Shown: piece by piece, positions 360-18,898 of the stretch
Position numbering within the stretch: position 1 is the stretch's first letter
Layout of the letters: each line of letters opens with the position of its first letter
DNA from: Escherichia coli
GTDB lineage: Bacteria; Pseudomonadota; Gammaproteobacteria; Enterobacterales; Enterobacteriaceae
Assembly (NCBI RefSeq): GCF_046105845.1
Contig: NZ_CP151004.1
Length of the DNA stretch: 64,000 nucleotides
Reading direction: 5' to 3' (one strand)
Translations under genes and position numbers: made by a program
Notes under the pieces: model-generated
What the model was told of the DNA's origin: nothing
Database searches by the model: none
What the model saw: only the letters and a program-made list of their open reading frames with translations

Positions 360-1590
360 ACCCTTCGTGCGAATTTCCCATCTGTTTATCTTTTAAAAAG
401 ATAACCATCAGCAACAGCCACAAAATTCCGTTGACAAGGTTGAAGAGATTAAACAGTCCGTTGCCCCCGTTCAGCCAGGCATGTTTGCTGATTTCAATAC
501 CGACGGTAAAGATCAGCATTTGCAGCATTCCCATCGCCGCAGAAACCGTACCTTTACTCATATCGCTGGCAAACAGGGTTAATCGCACCAGTCCCGCATT
601 CGCCAGACCAATGCCGAAAGCATAAATACTTAACCCGGCGGTCATCCATAAATACGCGTGCGATGAGATAACCGTTGCCGCAGCAGCGACCAACAGACCA
701 ATCATAATCGGCCAGCCGCCCATAATAATCAGCGAACGTACGGTGCGACGCGAGGTCAGACGCGCTAACAGCAAGTTACCCGCAATTAACGCCCCGAAAA
801 TAGGCACTTGCAGCAAGCCATATTCATAGCTGCTCAACTGCTCACCGGTAATGATGATAATCGGCGACTGGGCGATCCACGCCAGCAATGGCAGGCTAAC
901 GAATCCCAGCGCCAGCGCCCCCGCCACAAAGCGACCGTTCTTCAGCACCAGCTTATAGTCACGACCGAGTTCTTTCAGCGACAGTTTCTCGCCTATACGC
1001 GTGGCGGTTTCAGGCATGGCTCGTTGCAGACCGAAAAAGGAGATCGCTGCCAATGCGGCAAACAAGACAAACATCCCTTCCCAGGGCAGCACATGGATCC
1101 ACGCCGCGCCCACCAGCGGACCAAGTAGCGGAGCAATCAGCGCCACGTTCGCCATTAGCGCGGTGATCTTGATACAAACCGCCTCTTCGAAGGATTCCTG
1201 AATTGCGGCGTATCCCACAGCGCCAATGAAACAGAGGCTTATGCCCTGCAAGAAGCGCAACAGGGTGAATTGTTCAATGTTTTGCGCCAGTAATATTGCC
1301 AGACAGGTGACGATAAACCACACCACTCCCGCCAGCATCACCGGACGGCGGCCAATACGATCCGACAGCGGCCCCAGGAGCCATTGTAAAAACATCCCGC
1401 CCGCCAGATACGCAGTCATCGAAGTAGGAACCCAATCAATGCCCGCCTGATATTGTTCCACCACGGCCAACATACCGGGTTGAATCATATCGTTGCCGAT
1501 ATAGGTTGAAAATTCGTAAAGCACCAGACAGAGAGGGAAAAGTAACGCCTGACGTCCAAGCCTGGCACCGGAAACTAATTTATTTTGCAT
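358..1590 (-). CDS. mdfA: MFS multidrug efflux transporter MdfA (Cmr), 410 aa
   Basis: ORF 358..1620; start placed at internal Met ([11 protein letters not shown]...) matching the conserved MdfA N-terminus; polytopic membrane protein. Confidence 0.93.
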
Positions 1591-1874
1591 GCAATTTCTT
1601 CGCCAATAATAATCGCGCAAAGTTTAATAAAAGCGCAGCTAACGAGAAAGCGAATTTTGTAGCTGAAACCACGGTTAAGCACATTCTTACATTATTGCGA
1701 GTATAGCTACGCTTTCTTTAAGTTTTATTTAACCTATGCCCGTTACAATCACCCACCGTAAACAGGCCGCTTGAGGGAAATAAGACGATGCCGCTTTACC
1801 CAGTTTAACCTGCACTTTATTCTCAACGACTTGCCTGTATTGGCTCCCTTTTAATCACTTTGCGTCGGGAAGTT

Positions 1875-2471
1875 ATGCTGGAAAATTTGAATCTCTCTCT
1901 ATTCTCTCTTATTAACGCGACGCCAGACTCGGCTCCGTGGATGATCTCGTTGGCGATTTTTATTGCTAAAGATTTGATTACCGTGGTGCCGTTGCTGGCC
2001 GCGGTACTTTGGCTGTGGGGGCTTACAGCACAACGGCAACTGGTGATAAAAATCGCTATCGCGCTGGCGGTCAGCCTGTTTGTGTCCTGGTCGATGGGGC
2101 ATCTTTTTCCGCACGACCGACCCTTTGTCGAAAATATCGGCTATAACTTCCTGCATCATGCGGCGGATGACTCATTCCCGAGCGATCACGGTACGGTGAT
2201 TTTCACCTTTGCACTGGCATTTTTATGCTGGCATCGCCTGTGGTCCGGCTCACTTTTAATGGTGCTGGCCGTCGTCATTGCCTGGTCGCGCGTTTATCTT
2301 GGCGTCCACTGGCCGCTGGATATGCTCGGTGGATTGCTGGCAGGTATGATTGGCTGCCTTAGCGCCCAGATTATCTGGCAAGCGATGGGGCATAAACTCT
2401 ATCAACGTCTGCAATCGTGGTATCGTTTCTGTTTTGCATTACCGATCCGCAAAGGCTGGGTGCGTGACTGA
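1875..2471 (+). CDS. ybjG: Undecaprenyl-diphosphate phosphatase, PAP2 family (198 aa)
   Basis: ORF 1860..2471; start at Met-6 (MLENLNL...) matching YbjG; PAP2 motifs (PSDH, SR..H). Confidence 0.9.
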   Translation: MLENLNLSLFSLINATPDSAPWMISLAIFIAKDLITVVPLLAAVLWLWGLTAQRQLVIKIAIALAVSLFVSWSMGHLFPHDRPFVENIGYNFLHHAADDSFPSDHGTVIFTFALAFLCWHRLWSGSLLMVLAVVIAWSRVYLGVHWPLDMLGGLLAGMIGCLSAQIIWQAMGHKLYQRLQSWYRFCFALPIRKGWVRD

Positions 2472-2528
2472 TCTCTGCTAAAAAGTGTAGTATTGAGCGG
2501 CTCGCTTCAATAACTATTCAGAGGGATT

Positions 2529-3287
2529 ATGGAAACACGTCGCGAAGAGCGTATCGGGCAGCTGCTGCAAGAATTAAAACGCAGCGATAAGTTACATCTT
2601 AAAGACGCCGCCGCCCTGCTTGGGGTTTCGGAGATGACGATTCGTCGCGATCTGAACAACCACAGTGCGCCCGTCGTTTTGCTCGGCGGCTATATTGTTC
2701 TGGAACCGCGCAGCGCCAGCCATTACCTGTTAAGCGATCAAAAATCCCGCCTGGTGGAAGAAAAACGCCGGGCGGCAAAACTGGCTGCGACGCTGGTAGA
2801 ACCCGATCAGACCCTCTTTTTTGACTGTGGCACCACCACACCGTGGATTATTGAAGCGATTGATAACGAAATCCCTTTCACCGCCGTTTGTTATTCGCTA
2901 AATACCTTTCTGGCACTGAAAGAGAAACCCCATTGCCGCGCGTTTCTGTGTGGTGGTGAATTTCACGCCAGCAACGCCATTTTCAAACCCATCGATTTTC
3001 AGCAAACGCTGAATAATTTTTGCCCGGATATCGCTTTTTATTCCGCGGCGGGGGTGCATGTCAGTAAAGGCGCTACCTGTTTTAATCTTGAAGAGTTGCC
3101 GGTAAAACACTGGGCCATGTCGATGGCGCAAAAGCATGTGCTGGTTGTCGACCACAGTAAATTTGGCAAGGTGCGTCCGGCACGCATGGGTGACCTGAAA
3201 CGCTTTGATATTGTGGTGAGCGATTGTTGCCCGGAAGATGAGTATGTGAAGTACGCGCAGACGCAGCGTATTAAGTTGATGTATTAA
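2529..3287 (+). CDS. deoR: Deoxyribose operon repressor DeoR (252 aa)
   Basis: Full-length ORF, N-terminal HTH, recognised as DeoR; conserved position. Confidence 0.93.
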   Translation: METRREERIGQLLQELKRSDKLHLKDAAALLGVSEMTIRRDLNNHSAPVVLLGGYIVLEPRSASHYLLSDQKSRLVEEKRRAAKLAATLVEPDQTLFFDCGTTTPWIIEAIDNEIPFTAVCYSLNTFLALKEKPHCRAFLCGGEFHASNAIFKPIDFQQTLNNFCPDIAFYSAAGVHVSKGATCFNLEELPVKHWAMSMAQKHVLVVDHSKFGKVRPARMGDLKRFDIVVSDCCPEDEYVKYAQTQRIKLMY

Positions 3288-3297
3288 TGACGTATTA

Positions 3298-3322
3298 CCG
3301 GATGACGTTTCGCGCCATCCGG
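3298..3322. other. Intergenic hairpin (CCGGATG/CATCCGG) between deoR and dacC
   Basis: Inverted repeat read from sequence; no U-tract, so terminator function uncertain. Confidence 0.35.
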
Positions 3323-3333
3323 TTATCAGAAGA

Positions 3334-4536
3334 TTAAGAGAACCAGCTGCCGAACCACTGATGGAATTTCATCATAACGAAATCCCACATCCGCCCAAAG
3401 AATCCGCCCTCTTCCACATTTTCCATCACGATCAGCGGACGCTGCTCAATGGATTTACCGTTAAGCTGGAAATCAATGGTCCCGACAACCTGACCTTTTT
3501 TCAGCGGTGCGGTAAGCTGCGGTTCCGTTAACGTGTAGCTCGCTTTCAGGTTTTTCAGCTGCCCACGCGGTATGGTCACTGAGCCCGCTTCGCCTGCCCC
3601 GAGATTCACTTCGCTCTTATCACCAAACCAGACGCGCTGAGTCACAAAGGTGGCATCAGGTTTAATTGGCGTCACGGTTTCAAAGAAGCGGAAACCCCAG
3701 GTCAATAATTTCTCAGACTCATTAAAACGGATACGGTCAGTTTTCGCCCCCAGCACTACGGAGATTAAACGCATATCACCCTGGGTAGCCGAAGCAACCA
3801 GATTATATCCCGCGCCTGCCGTGGTTCCTGTCTTCATGCCATCAACATTCAGATTGCTGCTCCACAGCAGACGGTTACGGTTAGGCTGTCGAATTTTGTT
3901 GAAGGTGAACTCTTTCTCTTTATGAATGGCGTACTCTTCCGGCACATCGTGGATTAATGCTTTACCCAGCAATGCCATATCGCGCGCGGTACTGAACTGC
4001 CCCGGCGCATCCAGACCGTGCACCGTCTGGAAGGTAGTGTTGGTCAGACCCAGTTTTTTGGCATAACCATTCATCAGACCAATAAATGACTCCTGGCTCC
4101 CGGCAACGTAATCGGCCAGCGCAATACAGGCGTCATTACCGGACTGGATAATCACACCTTTGTTCAGGTCTGCCACCGAAACCTGATCGCCCGGTTTAAG
4201 GAACATTACCGATGAACCACGCAGTGCCGGATTTCCCGTCGCCCAGGCATCTTTACCGACCGTCACCATATCGGTGAGTTTAATCTTATCGGCCTTAAGC
4301 GCCTGCCCAACCACATAGCTGGTCATGATTTTAGTCAGGCTCGCGGGGTCCAGTTTTTCATCCGCATTGCCTTCTGCCAGCACTTTACCGCTGGCGTAAT
4401 CCATTAAAATCCATGCACGCGCATCCACGCTCGGCGCTTCAACGGTTTGTTCCGCCGCGAATGCCGTTGGGGCAAAAAGGAATAAAAATGCAGAACCCGC
4501 TGCAAGACCACGAAGGAGAGAGGAGTATTGCGTCAT
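3334..4536 (-). CDS. dacC: D-alanyl-D-alanine carboxypeptidase DacC (PBP6), 400 aa
   Basis: ORF 3334..4557; start at Met-8 ([10 protein letters not shown]...) with signal peptide; SxxK motif (SLTK). Confidence 0.93.
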
Positions 4537-4782
4537 AAATGCCACCCGAGTATCCATTCAAAAAAAATACGTTATATCGCCGTATGATAAGTTCGGTGAT
4601 TAATAACGCACACACAAACTTAAAGAAACCGTAAGTTGGTAAAGTTTTTAAAGTTTATGCAATATCCTGCCGCTTCGCTGCTTCTGGTGTCATTTTTTTG
4701 CCAGCTGTTGCTTAAAAGTTAACTTTACTTCACCATCGGAGTCCTGTTCAGCCTGTGGCTGCCTGTCGGAAAAGGGGTGAGT

Positions 4783-5409
4783 ATGATTACGCTGTGGGGT
4801 CGGAATAATTCAACCAACGTAAAAAAAGTATTGCTGACGCTCGAAGAACTGGAACTACCTTATGAGCAAATTCTCGCGGGCCGTGAGTTTGGGATAAATC
4901 ACGATGCTGATTTTCTGGCGATGAACCCTAACGGGCTGGTGCCGTTGTTGCGTGACGACGAAAGTGATCTCATTCTTTGGGAATCAAACGCCATTGTCCG
5001 CTATCTGGCGGCACAGTACGGGCAAAAACGCCTGTGGATCGACTCACCGGCACGTCGTGCGGAAGCAGAAAAATGGATGGACTGGGCAAACCAGACGCTC
5101 AGTAATGCTCATCGCGGGATCCTGATGGGATTAGTCAGAACACCACCGGAAGAGCGCGATCAGGCCGCCATTGATGCCAGTTGTAAAGAGTGCGACGCCC
5201 TGTTTGCCCTGCTCGATGCGGAACTGGCAAAAGTAAAATGGTTCTCTGGCGACGAGTTTGGTGTGGGCGATATCGCTATCGCTCCGTTCATCTACAATTT
5301 GTTTAACGTTGGCCTGACCTGGACACCGCGTCCAAATCTGCAACGCTGGTATCAGCAACTCACTGAACGCCCCGCAGTGCGCAAAGTGGTGATGATTCCC
5401 GTTAGCTAA
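4783..5409 (+). CDS. gstB: Glutathione S-transferase GstB (YliJ), 208 aa
   Basis: ORF 4777..5409; start at MITLWGRN matching GstB. Confidence 0.9.
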
Positions 5410-14313: not shown

Positions 14314-15852
14314 TTATTGCAAATCCGCGTCTTCAAAGCTGAAGCCGGTGTCTGGCATGATCCAAAAACCGGTCAGGTTTTTACTGTGTGCCGACACCAG
14401 TTTTTCTACCACTAGCGGGATCCACGGCGACTCTTGCCAGATGATATCCTGCGCCGCCTTATATAAACGGGTCTTTTCTGCCGGATCATTAGTTTTCAGT
14501 GCCTGAGCCAGGAAGTCATCCACCTGTTTATTGCTGTAAAACGCGGTATTAAACAGCGTCGGTGGCCAGTTCTGCGATGCAAACAGCGGCGATAGAGCCC
14601 AGTCAGCTTCGCCGGTTGAAGCCGACCAGCCAGTGTAGAACATCCGCACGCCGCTCTCTTTTTGCCCTTTACCTTCAACTTCTGCCGCCCGCTGTCCGGC
14701 ATCCATCGCAGTCACCTGGGCTTTAATCCCGACCTGCGCTAACTGCTGCTGGGTAAATTGCAGCACTTTCTGCGCGGTGCTGTGGTTATGTGACGACCAC
14801 AGCGTGGTACTGAAACCGTTGGGATATCCCGCCTCTTTCAGTAATTCGCGCGCTTTCACTGGATCGTAAGGCCACGGTTTATAACTTTGCGCGTAGGCGA
14901 TACTCGGCGGTACCACACCAGTAGCTGGCTTTGCATAGCCCGCGAAGGCTACTTTCACCAGCGCCGGGCGGTTAATGGCGTAATTCAGCGCCTCACGGAC
15001 CTTCGGGTTATCGAACGGCTTTTGCGTCACGTTCATACTGATATAACGCTGCATAATTGACGGACTGGCCATCAACTCGATATTTTTGTTTTTCTCCAGC
15101 AGTGCGGCCTGCTCGTAGGGAATGGGGAAAGCAAACTGCGCTTCACCGGTTTGCAGCATTGCCGCGCGGGTGTTGTTATCCGCCACCGGACGCCAGGTTA
15201 TGCTGTCCAGTTTGGGCAATCCTGGCTGCCAGTAAGCCGCGAATTTTTTCACCTTCACAAAATCGGTCTGATTCCAGGTATCCAGTTCATACGGCCCGGT
15301 TCCCACTGGATGAAAACCAATCTCCTTGCCATATTTTTCCAGCGCTGCCGGCGAAATCATCGCGGTCGCCGGATGGGCAAGAATATTAATAAACGCTGAG
15401 AACGGCTGTTTGAGGGTAATCTTTACCGTTGTTGGATCGATCGCTTCCGTTTTGGCAATATTCTTATACAGGTTGTAGCGTTTAAGATGATTCGCCGGAT
15501 CGCTGGCCCGGTCCAGATTCGCTTTTACCGCCGCTGCGTTGAAGTCGGTGCCATCCTGGAATTTAATTCCTTCCCGCAATTTCACGGTGTAAGTAAGGCC
15601 GTCATCGGAAACGGTATAACTCTCCGCCAGCACGTTTTTCAGTTTCATCTCTTTATCGAGACCGAACAGCCCCTGGTAAAACGATTTCGCTACGGCCTGA
15701 GATAACGTGTCATTCGCGTCATAGGGATCGAGCGTGGTGAAGTTCGATCCTACCGCCACCACCACATCTTTGGCAGCGAATGCACAAGATGCCATCAACG
15801 CTGTCGCAATGCCCAGCGCCACTAACCCACTACGGTGTACAGCTCTTGCCAT
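14314..15852 (-). CDS. gsiB: Glutathione-binding periplasmic protein GsiB, 512 aa
   Basis: ORF 14314..16119; start at internal Met ([14 protein letters not shown]...) with signal peptide, matching GsiB. Confidence 0.92.
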
Positions 15853-15871
15853 TTTATTCTCCGCCTGAATG

Positions 15872-17743
15872 TTATCTACGCATGAATGCGTATTCTGATT
15901 GTGGTTGTGCGACGTAATGCCCCGGCCCGACGCATTGCAACGAGACAGCTGCAACCTCTTCGCCACGCAGATGAATATTGCTGGGAAGATCGTCCGACAG
16001 CAGTACACGCTGCGGTCGTTGTCGGGACGGTTCCGCGACCGGAACCGCCGCCAGTAATTTACGCGTATAAGGATGCTGCGGGTTTTCGAAGACCGCGCGC
16101 CGTGGACCAATTTCAACAATTTGTCCGAGATACATCACCGCCACACGATGACTAATCCGCTCTACCACGGCCATATCGTGGGAGATAAACAGATACGCAA
16201 TGCCGAAATCACGCTGGAGATCGAGCAACAAGTTGATAATCTGCCCGCGAATAGAAACATCCAGCGCCGAGACGGCTTCATCGGCAATGATCACTTTTGG
16301 ATTCAATGCCAACGCGCGAGCAATGCAGATGCGCTGGCGCTGACCGCCGGAAAACTCATGCGGGTAACGCCAGGCATGTTCAGGTAACAGGCCCACGCGC
16401 TCCAGCAACCACGCAACGCGTGCAGCCGCTTCTTTACCTGGCAATAAACCGTGTACGCGCAGCGGTTCGATAATCGAATCACCGATGGTCTGACGTGGGT
16501 CCAGCGAAGCGTAAGGGTCCTGAAAAATAAACTGAATATCGCGGCGCAATGCCTGAAGTTTACCGGGTGACAAGGTATCGATTCGCTGACCGTTAAAGAT
16601 AATTTCGCCGCCCTGCGATTCGACCAGGCGCAGCAACGCCCGCCCGGTAGTGGATTTACCGCTGCCAGACTCGCCCACCAGCGATAGCGTTTCGCCAGGC
16701 CAGAGATCAAAACTGACTTTCTCAACGGCATGCACTTCCCGCGTTACGCGATTCAACAAACCGCTGCGCAAAGGGAAACGGGTGACCAGATTACGCACCC
16801 GTAAAACAGGTTCGCCATCCACCACCGTTTTCTGCTCGATGGGTGGTTCCTGTTTCGCTGGATGTTCAAGCGATATCAATGGGAAACGTCGGGGATAATC
16901 TAACCCTTTCATCGCACCAAGTTGCGGAACAGCAGCTAACAGCGCACGGGTGTAAGGATGTTGCGGTGCATGAAAAATCTGTTCGACGCTACCCGTTTCC
17001 ACCGCCTCGCCCTGATACATCACCAGTACCCGATCGGCAATCTCTGCCACCACGCCCATATCGTGAGTGATAAAGATAACGCCCATCGACATCTCTTTTT
17101 GCAATACTTTGATTAATTGCAGGATCTGCGCCTGAATAGTGACATCCAGCGCGGTGGTTGGCTCATCGGCAATCAGCACCGCCGGGCGGCATGACAGTGC
17201 CATCGCAATCATCACTCGCTGGCGCATCCCGCCAGAGAGTTGATGCGGATAACGTGAAAGAATGGTTTGTGCCTCCGGAATGCGTACCTGATCCAGCATC
17301 CGCTTCGCCTCGACCATTGCTTCTTCACGACTGGCGTTTTGATGCAGACGAATAGATTCAGCAATCTGTTCACCCACAGTAAATACCGGGTTCAGCGATG
17401 TCATCGGCTCCTGAAATATCATCGCCATATCCGCACCGCGCACATGGCGCATTTGTGCAGCGCTCTGCTCGCTAAGTTCAATCACTTCGCGACTGCGCCG
17501 CCGCAACAGCATTTGATCGCACTGCACTAAACCGCCCGCCTGTTCCAACAGGCGCATCAATGCCAGCGCAGTCACTGACTTACCGGAGCCGGATTCGCCA
17601 ACAATTGCCAGCGTCTCACCACGTTGCAGGCTAAAAGAGAGATTGCGGACCGCAGCTATTTTCTGCTGGTCCTGCATAAAGGCAATATTCAGATTTTCAA
17701 CCGCCAGCACATCACCGGCATCAAGTTCATCACTGTGTGGCAA
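15872..17743 (-). CDS. gsiA: Glutathione ABC transporter ATPase GsiA (two nucleotide-binding domains), 623 aa
   Basis: ORF 15872..17851; conserved N-terminus (PHSDELDAG...) is preceded by a TTG codon at 17741-17743, inferred non-ATG start; two Walker A motifs (GESGSGKS). Confidence 0.88.
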
Positions 17744-18695
17744 CGGTGTCCCCTTTTTCACGGTAGATACCGGTGGTTGGCGTATCGCCTGCGTAGCCCC
17801 AGGCGCGATACATTCCTTCGGTGTTAAACGGTAGCGCGATATTACCTTCATGGTCGATAGCGATTAAGCCACCGCTACCGCCAAGCGCAGGGAGTTTTTC
17901 CATTACTACCCGCTCGCAGGCTTCCGCGAGACTTAATCCGCCGTAATCCATTAACGCGGCGATGTCATATGCCGCCAGCGCGCGGATGAAGACTTCGCCC
18001 GTGCCGGTACATGAAACCGCCACACTGGCGTTATTGGCGTAGCATCCGGCCCCCACTAAGGGACTATCGCCAACTCGTCCGGGTAATTTATTGGTCATTC
18101 CGCCTGTGGACGTGGCTGCCGCCAGATTGCCGTCTAAATCCAACGCCACGGCCCCCACGGTGCCCATTTTCTGTTTTTCATCCAGTGGCGCACCGCTATG
18201 GTCGAGGACCATTTCCCCTTCCTCGCGCGCTGCCAGTAGTTGTTCATAACGCAAAGGCGTGGAGAAAATCTCCGGCGAGACGCGCTCCATGCCATGAGCA
18301 AACGCAAAATTTTCTGCCCCTTCGCCAATCATCATCACATGCGGGCTCTGCTCCATCACCAGCCGGGCGGCAAGAACCGGATTACGCAGATGACTAACGC
18401 CCGCCACCGCACCGGCTTTCAGGGTGTTACCATCCATCACACAGGCGTCCAGTTCATGGGTTTCATCACGCGTAAAGACAGCGCCAATTCCGGCGTTAAA
18501 CAGTGGACACTCTTCCAGCAGACGCACCGCTTCCGTCACCACATCCAGCGCACTTTCGCCCGCTTCCAGCATTTTCTGCCCGGTTTCAACAATGGCAGAC
18601 AGCGCCTCGATGTAGCGTAATTCCTGTTGCAGACTCATCTGCGCGCGGCTAATTGCACCTGCGCCGCCATGAATTGCAATGACTGCTTTGCCCAT
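17730..18695 (-). CDS. iaaA: Isoaspartyl dipeptidase / L-asparaginase IaaA (Ntn hydrolase), 321 aa
   Basis: Full ORF, recognised IaaA; first gene of the iaaA-gsiABCD cluster. Confidence 0.92.
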
Positions 18696-18898
18696 AGTAT
18701 TCGTCCATTAAGGGTGGCTCGCCACTTTTGCTATAAATATCAGAATTTTTATGAATTACTCATTCAATTTTTGAATATAGAAAGATGGATATGGCATGTA
18801 AAGGCAGGAGCCAGCGCTACGCCCGAGGTGGCATACAGTCTGTGGCGTTTTTCTGACATAATAGGCAAATTCGATTTTGCCTCCGCAGGAGTGTTTTC

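Follow-up and report, generated by a model that had tools for sequence, protein, structure and literature searches.

Comparative and annotation evidence places the start of gsiA at a UUG codon within the 3' end of iaaA in Escherichia coli

In the window, that is, the whole 64,000-nucleotide stretch of Escherichia coli DNA that was analysed, the genes iaaA, gsiA, gsiB, gsiC and gsiD follow one another in this order (according to the RefSeq annotation of matching E. coli regions), and the reading frames of iaaA and gsiA meet in a short region of the minus strand. The features of this region, with the evidence on which each assignment is based, are the following.

18774..18802, minus strand: sigma-70-like promoter match (TTTACA, 17-nt spacer, TATATT) 5' of iaaA; a pattern match only
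17730..18695, minus strand: iaaA coding sequence, beta-aspartyl / isoaspartyl peptidase, 321 aa (open reading frame; annotated by RefSeq in XJ6.1, a near-identical strain, and as b0828 in MG1655)
17849..17851, minus strand: upstream in-frame ATG that opens the six-frame open reading frame, judged not to be a start (Shine-Dalgarno energy, the E. albertii sequence, in-frame stops, substitution periodicity)
17744..17848, minus strand: 35 codons separating this ATG from the TTG; free of stops in the gsiA frame, although only IaaA is encoded (the gsiA-frame translation is poorly conserved, the IaaA-frame translation nearly invariant)
17750..17755, minus strand: Shine-Dalgarno sequence AAGGGG, 6 nt 5' of the TTG, inside the Lys-Gly-Asp codons of IaaA (about residues 314–317)
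17741..17743, minus strand: gsiA initiation codon TTG (UUG) (start in the RefSeq strains and MG1655; position 1 of family model NF007613; homologous codons are TTG, GTG or ATG)
17730..17743, minus strand: 14-nt region read in two frames, comprising gsiA codons 1–5 and iaaA codons 318–321 plus the stop (from the sequence)
17730..17732, minus strand: iaaA stop codon TGA, within gsiA codons 4–5 (AGT GAT)
15872..17743, minus strand: gsiA coding sequence, glutathione ABC transporter ATP-binding protein, 623 aa (open reading frame and RefSeq annotation of XJ6.1)
14314..15852, minus strand: gsiB coding sequence, the next gene of the operon, 19 nt past the gsiA stop (XJ6.1 RefSeq annotation mapped onto the window)

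On the minus strand, the 3' end of iaaA reads CGT GAA AAA GGG GAC ACC GTT GCC ACA CAG TGA, and, read in the +1 frame, these bases give GTG AAA AAG GGG ACA CCG TTG, followed by CCA CAC AGT GAT GAA CTT GAT GCC GGT GAT; the span from the TTG to the end of the TGA (17743–17730) is 14 nt. The first-pass annotation had proposed that gsiA starts at this TTG, overlapping the 3' end of iaaA, and the sequence, the RefSeq annotation, the family model and a comparison of 34 junctions all agree with the proposal. Its further observation that no in-frame ATG lies immediately 5' of the GsiA N-terminus is likewise borne out, the nearest being the one at 17851–17849; between 17849 and the TTG there is no other in-frame ATG, and the sole other start-type codon is a GTG at 17761–17759. 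When opened at the upstream ATG, the six-frame reading frame encodes 659 aa, compared with 623 aa from the TTG; the 36 extra, non-conserved residues and the overlap of about 120 bp that had been ascribed to this longer frame hold up, with the exact overlap being 122 nt and the extension being poorly conserved as protein.

The arrangement is shared throughout the species. Of 5426 complete E. coli genomes, 5425 contain a match of 98–99.9% identity to an 801-nt stretch spanning the junction, always under iaaA and gsiA, and 5233 contain an exact copy of a 36-mer that covers the Shine-Dalgarno sequence, the TTG and the TGA; the junction in the window is 99.9% identical to that of strain XJ6.1. The iaaA-gsiA junction is a real feature, not a chance pattern. 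As a side observation on the opposite strand, a terminator-like hairpin followed by a T-run (CACTGTGTGGCAACGGTG TCCCCTTTTT) lies antisense to the junction (17731–17748, plus strand); because the T-run complements the gsiA Shine-Dalgarno sequence and the adjoining A-run, it probably arises as a by-product and does not act as a terminator.

Neither the TTG start nor the 14-nt overlap is new: they are known from the curated MG1655/RefSeq annotation and from the NCBIfam GsiA model. RefSeq places gsiA at the TTG, with the 14-nt overlap, in XJ6.1, in a K-12 derivative and in MG1655, where iaaA (b0828) occupies 866568..867533 and gsiA (b0829, NP_415350.2) occupies 867520..869391. The GsiA of the window is 100% identical, over residues 1–623, to WP_085459470.1 of XJ6.1, and it scores 1378.5 bits against NCBIfam NF007613 (the PRK10261 equivalog; cutoff 1077). 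Positions 1–623 of this 623-position model map to residues 37–659 of the long open reading frame, and since model position 1 falls on residue 37, the GsiA model begins on the TTG. The gsiA gene of K-12 (b0829, formerly yliA) shares the start codon, the overlap and the length of 623 aa with the window; the two proteins are 98.9% identical, and nothing substantive sets them apart. The window belongs to a different E. coli lineage, with Asp in place of Asn at residue 11.

Two further observations concern individual records. The MG1655 GsiA record (locus at 1521–3392 of the NC_000913.3 stretch compared here) carries the version NP_415350.2, from which it follows that its protein sequence has been revised once since the original release; the revision may have been a start-site correction. 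In an extraintestinal pathogenic (ExPEC) E. coli from mussels (NZ_CM172609.1, 2958–5052), gsiA is annotated in two pieces, one at 2958..4490 and a partial pseudogene at 4456..5052, which jointly exceed the intact gene by ~220 nt, suggesting an internal duplication or insertion; this genome keeps the TTG start and the 14-nt overlap.

When a single genome of each species was scanned, 80 orthologous loci were obtained, none of them from Salmonella; 34 Enterobacterales loci were used for the junction comparison. All the way from Enterobacterales to Burkholderiales, iaaA is the gene directly 5' of gsiA. The codon that corresponds to the TTG of the window is again TTG in Escherichia, including E. 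albertii, and in Citrobacter, Superficieibacter and Pseudocitrobacter; GTG is found in Lelliottia, Enterobacter, Phytobacter, Kosakonia, Pluralibacter gergoviae and Siccibacter; and ATG is found in Leclercia, Cedecea, Erwinia, Pantoea, Serratia and Tatumella. Most of the 34 junctions carry a GGAG or GGGG block 5' of this codon, with duplex energies against the 16S 3' end mostly between −5.5 and −11.7 kcal/mol (the exceptions are L016 at −1.7 and L034 at +0.6 kcal/mol); the TTG of the window, at −7.8 kcal/mol, is within this range. It should be noted, as a separate observation, that in loci L039–L082 (Achromobacter, Bordetella, Paraburkholderia, Variovorax, Cupriavidus and others) the iaaA-gsiA order is kept and GsiA is 64–70% identical, with an intergenic gap of tens of nucleotides and without the PHSDELD motif.

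The comparison bears directly on the possibility that gsiA starts instead at the upstream ATG (17851–17849), giving a protein of 659 aa whose 36-residue extension would be encoded in the +1 frame of iaaA. This ATG is the first of the open frame, and both it and the open frame are present in E. coli and Citrobacter. However, it has no Shine-Dalgarno sequence (−1.5 kcal/mol), E. albertii carries a Thr codon in its place, and in other genera stops interrupt the frame after the ATG position and before the TTG; in seven loci (L008, L011, L012, L021, L024, L025 and L026) such gsiA-frame stops lie only 3–12 codons 5' of the homologous start. The extension is also outside the NF007613 model, and RefSeq does not use it.

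The substitution pattern provides a further argument against the extension. Among seven ungapped Escherichia and Citrobacter sequences, 218 of 281 iaaA wobble positions (about 77%) are variable 5' of the alternative ATG, as are 23 of 30 in the 90 nt that follow it. Each of these iaaA wobble positions is also the middle base of a codon in the gsiA frame, where selection on a second protein would reduce variability; no such reduction is seen, and the constraint imposed by the gsiA frame therefore begins at or near the TTG. Within the 14-nt overlap none of the 14 positions is variable, and past the iaaA stop the variation takes on the periodicity of gsiA, with 10 of 15 variable wobble positions vs 5 of 15 and 3 of 15 at the other two codon positions. 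Taken with the points above, this makes initiation at the upstream ATG hardly credible, and we retain the TTG as the start.

The six-frame track presents the same kind of artefact at the next gene: the gsiB frame (601 aa from a TTG; 14314–16119, minus strand) over-extends the annotated gene (512 aa from the ATG at 15852) and would overlap gsiA by 248 nt.

A start at one of two nearby in-frame GTG codons has also to be weighed, that is, at 17761–17759, six codons upstream of the TTG (629 aa), or at Val-12, 17710–17708 (612 aa). In the window both codons read GTG; the valine at position 12 is conserved, and solved homologues have an ABC domain whose alignment to GsiA begins at about residue 9–13. 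On the other hand, the upstream GTG has a weak Shine-Dalgarno sequence (−3.1 kcal/mol), and a GCG (Ala) codon stands in its place in E. albertii and in L003, a divergent E. coli locus. Three loci (L003, L005 and L007) encode the valine of position 12 by GTA or GTT, so what is conserved is the amino acid and not a start codon; nor is there a good Shine-Dalgarno sequence in front of it (−4.9 kcal/mol or weaker). GsiA residues 2–11, which precede Val-12, are conserved as protein across genera, and residues 2–8 (PHSDELD and variants) are kept also in genera where the same DNA does not overlap iaaA; these codons must therefore be translated, and Val-12 is excluded as the start. In the solved ABC ATPase homologues (e.g., DppD and OppD), GsiA residue 9–13 aligns to the homologue's own residue 4–16, so that short N-terminal leaders are the norm in this family, and one of 47 residues would not be; the comparison is with homologues only, since no solved GsiA structure that shows the N-terminus was found. 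Together with the cell-free data described below, these observations make a start at either GTG very unlikely, and the TTG remains the preferred initiation codon.

In published start-site maps, gsiA gives no signal. In the cell-free INRI-seq assay, in which about 70% of E. coli initiation regions give a peak (PMC9825163), the isolated gsiA region (−30..+153) yielded 0 CPM in five of five replicates, and iaaA, with its ATG start, was blank too, while gsiB, gsiC and gsiD gave peaks (PMC9825163 Table S2). Because iaaA is also blank, the blank at gsiA is weak evidence; the absence of a peak from both genes points to weak isolated initiation regions for the first two genes of the cluster. Over the first 153 nt the assay showed no other gsiA initiation site, which speaks against the nearby GTG codons; the construct, reaching from −30 to +153, cannot probe the ATG at −108. 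In vivo, the Ribo-RET data are blank for gsiA at MG1655 867520, as for about 82% of genes, with no alternative site in Table S3, and gsiA is absent from the TRAINSPOTTER and Salmonella riboproteogenomics supplements. Neither an N-terminal sequence of GsiA nor a start-site footprint was found in the literature and supplements searched. The assignment of the start to the TTG is thus strongly indicated by comparative and annotation evidence rather than by direct measurement.

The same junctions suggest how the overlap may have arisen. In most Enterobacterales the 3' end of iaaA reads ATC TAT CGT GAA TAA-GGAG...(A/G/T)TG: IaaA ends in IYRE, and the iaaA TAA adjoins the gsiA Shine-Dalgarno sequence, 9–13 nt before the start. 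In Cedecea-like genomes iaaA and gsiA overlap by one base, in the form TAATG or TGATG. In Escherichia and Citrobacter, AAA (17754–17756, minus strand; Lys-314 of IaaA) stands in place of the TAA at identical spacing (compare positions 1488–1490 of L009 and 1487–1489 of L011). The change from TAA to AAA would lengthen IaaA by eight residues (KGDTVATQ), up to the TGA in gsiA codons 4–5, and so create the 14-nt overlap. The junctions of Leclercia, Lelliottia and Cedecea share with the window the position of the start, the Shine-Dalgarno block and the PHS(D/H)EL motif, but differ in having an ATG or GTG start, an iaaA TAA 9–13 nt before the start or a one-base overlap, and no KGDTVATQ tail. The 14-nt overlap is therefore probably a derived state of Escherichia and Citrobacter that arose by a single substitution, its polarity being read from the distribution among genera and not from a tree.

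The first-pass annotation had concluded that the overlap implies translational coupling within the operon, a statement that exceeds the evidence. What favors coupling is proximity: the distance from the iaaA stop to the gsiA start is between −19 and +14 nt in 34 of 34 Enterobacterales junctions, as opposed to tens of nucleotides in Burkholderiales, and it is from this conserved proximity that we infer coupling of iaaA and gsiA to be plausible. UUG is a weak start codon, and gsiA is the only one of 45 neighboring annotated genes to start with TTG. A sigma-70 pattern scan found no promoter-like site on the minus strand inside iaaA, the only match 5' of gsiA being that at 18774..18802; the three terminator-like pattern matches are weak, with poor T-tails. 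According to the literature, gsiABCD forms an operon, and iaaA is part of the locus (PMC10355420).

The coupled overlapping pairs trpE-trpD and trpB-trpA of E. coli operons (UGAUG type) resemble iaaA-gsiA in that the genes lie on the same strand and are co-transcribed, as iaaA and gsiA probably are, the downstream Shine-Dalgarno sequence lies within the upstream coding sequence, and the stop is a few nucleotides from the start. They differ in overlapping by 1 or 4 nt, compared with 14 nt in iaaA-gsiA, and gsiA starts with UUG. As the 14-nt overlap puts the iaaA stop downstream of the gsiA start, reinitiation would need a short backward movement. For the trp pairs coupling has been measured; for iaaA-gsiA it is plausible.

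RNA structure does not add to the case for coupling. Opening the region from −20 to +10 of gsiA costs 8.4 kcal/mol, which ranks 27th among the 45 neighboring genes (median 8.9), so the initiation region is not unusually structured; a downstream initiation region that is masked by structure is common among coupled pairs, although coupling does not require it. A long mRNA hairpin is predicted at 17699–17782 of the window (minus strand), in which CACCGGUAUC pairs with GAUGCCGGUG and which encloses the gsiA Shine-Dalgarno sequence and the UUG, with z-scores of −2.6 in the window and −2.1 in K-12. For E. albertii and Citrobacter the prediction gives no such hairpin (z about 0), and the consensus fold contains no compensatory pair. 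Conserved RNA structure was rejected as a basis for coupling, the hairpin being unconserved and the accessibility ordinary.

These data must be set against the alternative that the TTG start is initiated independently on its own Shine-Dalgarno sequence, the overlap being a neutral by-product of the change of the iaaA stop and coupling being absent. With −7.8 kcal/mol the Shine-Dalgarno sequence is good enough for independent de novo initiation, the ordinary accessibility of the region and the lack of a conserved RNA structure point the same way, and the length of the overlap is specific to the lineage, the stop being separated from the start in relatives. Against this stand the proximity of stop and start throughout the Enterobacterales junctions and its relaxation in Burkholderiales, the weakness of UUG as an initiator and the absence of an in vitro signal from the isolated gsiA region. 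We regard independent initiation as a serious contender, albeit with somewhat less than an even chance of being correct, and a substantial contribution of coupling to gsiA initiation as about evenly balanced.

The explanation that we consider best, and hold with high confidence as a whole, is one in which the start site is the firm part. In this explanation, gsiA is translated from the UUG at 17743–17741 (minus strand), using the AAGGGG sequence located 6 nt upstream in the last codons of iaaA, to give a 623-aa GsiA that begins with fMet-Pro-His-Ser-Asp-Glu-Leu-Asp, and the 36-codon open stretch 5' of the TTG is the +1 frame of iaaA, which happens to contain no stop there. The two genes would be co-transcribed, and ribosomes finishing iaaA would probably aid initiation on gsiA, either by reinitiating or by keeping the site open; their contribution is probable because the UGA (17732–17730) lies 9–11 nt downstream of the UUG. 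The overlap itself would be derived. A stronger version, in which the loss of the iaaA stop (TAA to AAA) made gsiA of Escherichia and Citrobacter strictly dependent on ribosomes that terminate 9–11 nt past the UUG and step back, seems unlikely to us.

The finding about the start is correct but ordinary, and there is little to gain from it beyond some practical points: six-frame tracks over-extend genes whose true start is not an ATG, as they do likewise for gsiB in the window, and for GsiA expression constructs and proteomic databases the 623-aa form is the appropriate one. If strict dependence did hold, the output of the ATPase of the glutathione importer would be tied, in a lineage-specific manner, to the output of the isoaspartyl peptidase, and relatives with an ATG or GTG start and a separated stop would initiate gsiA independently. 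The overlap provides a small example of how a single stop-codon substitution may convert adjacent genes into overlapping ones.
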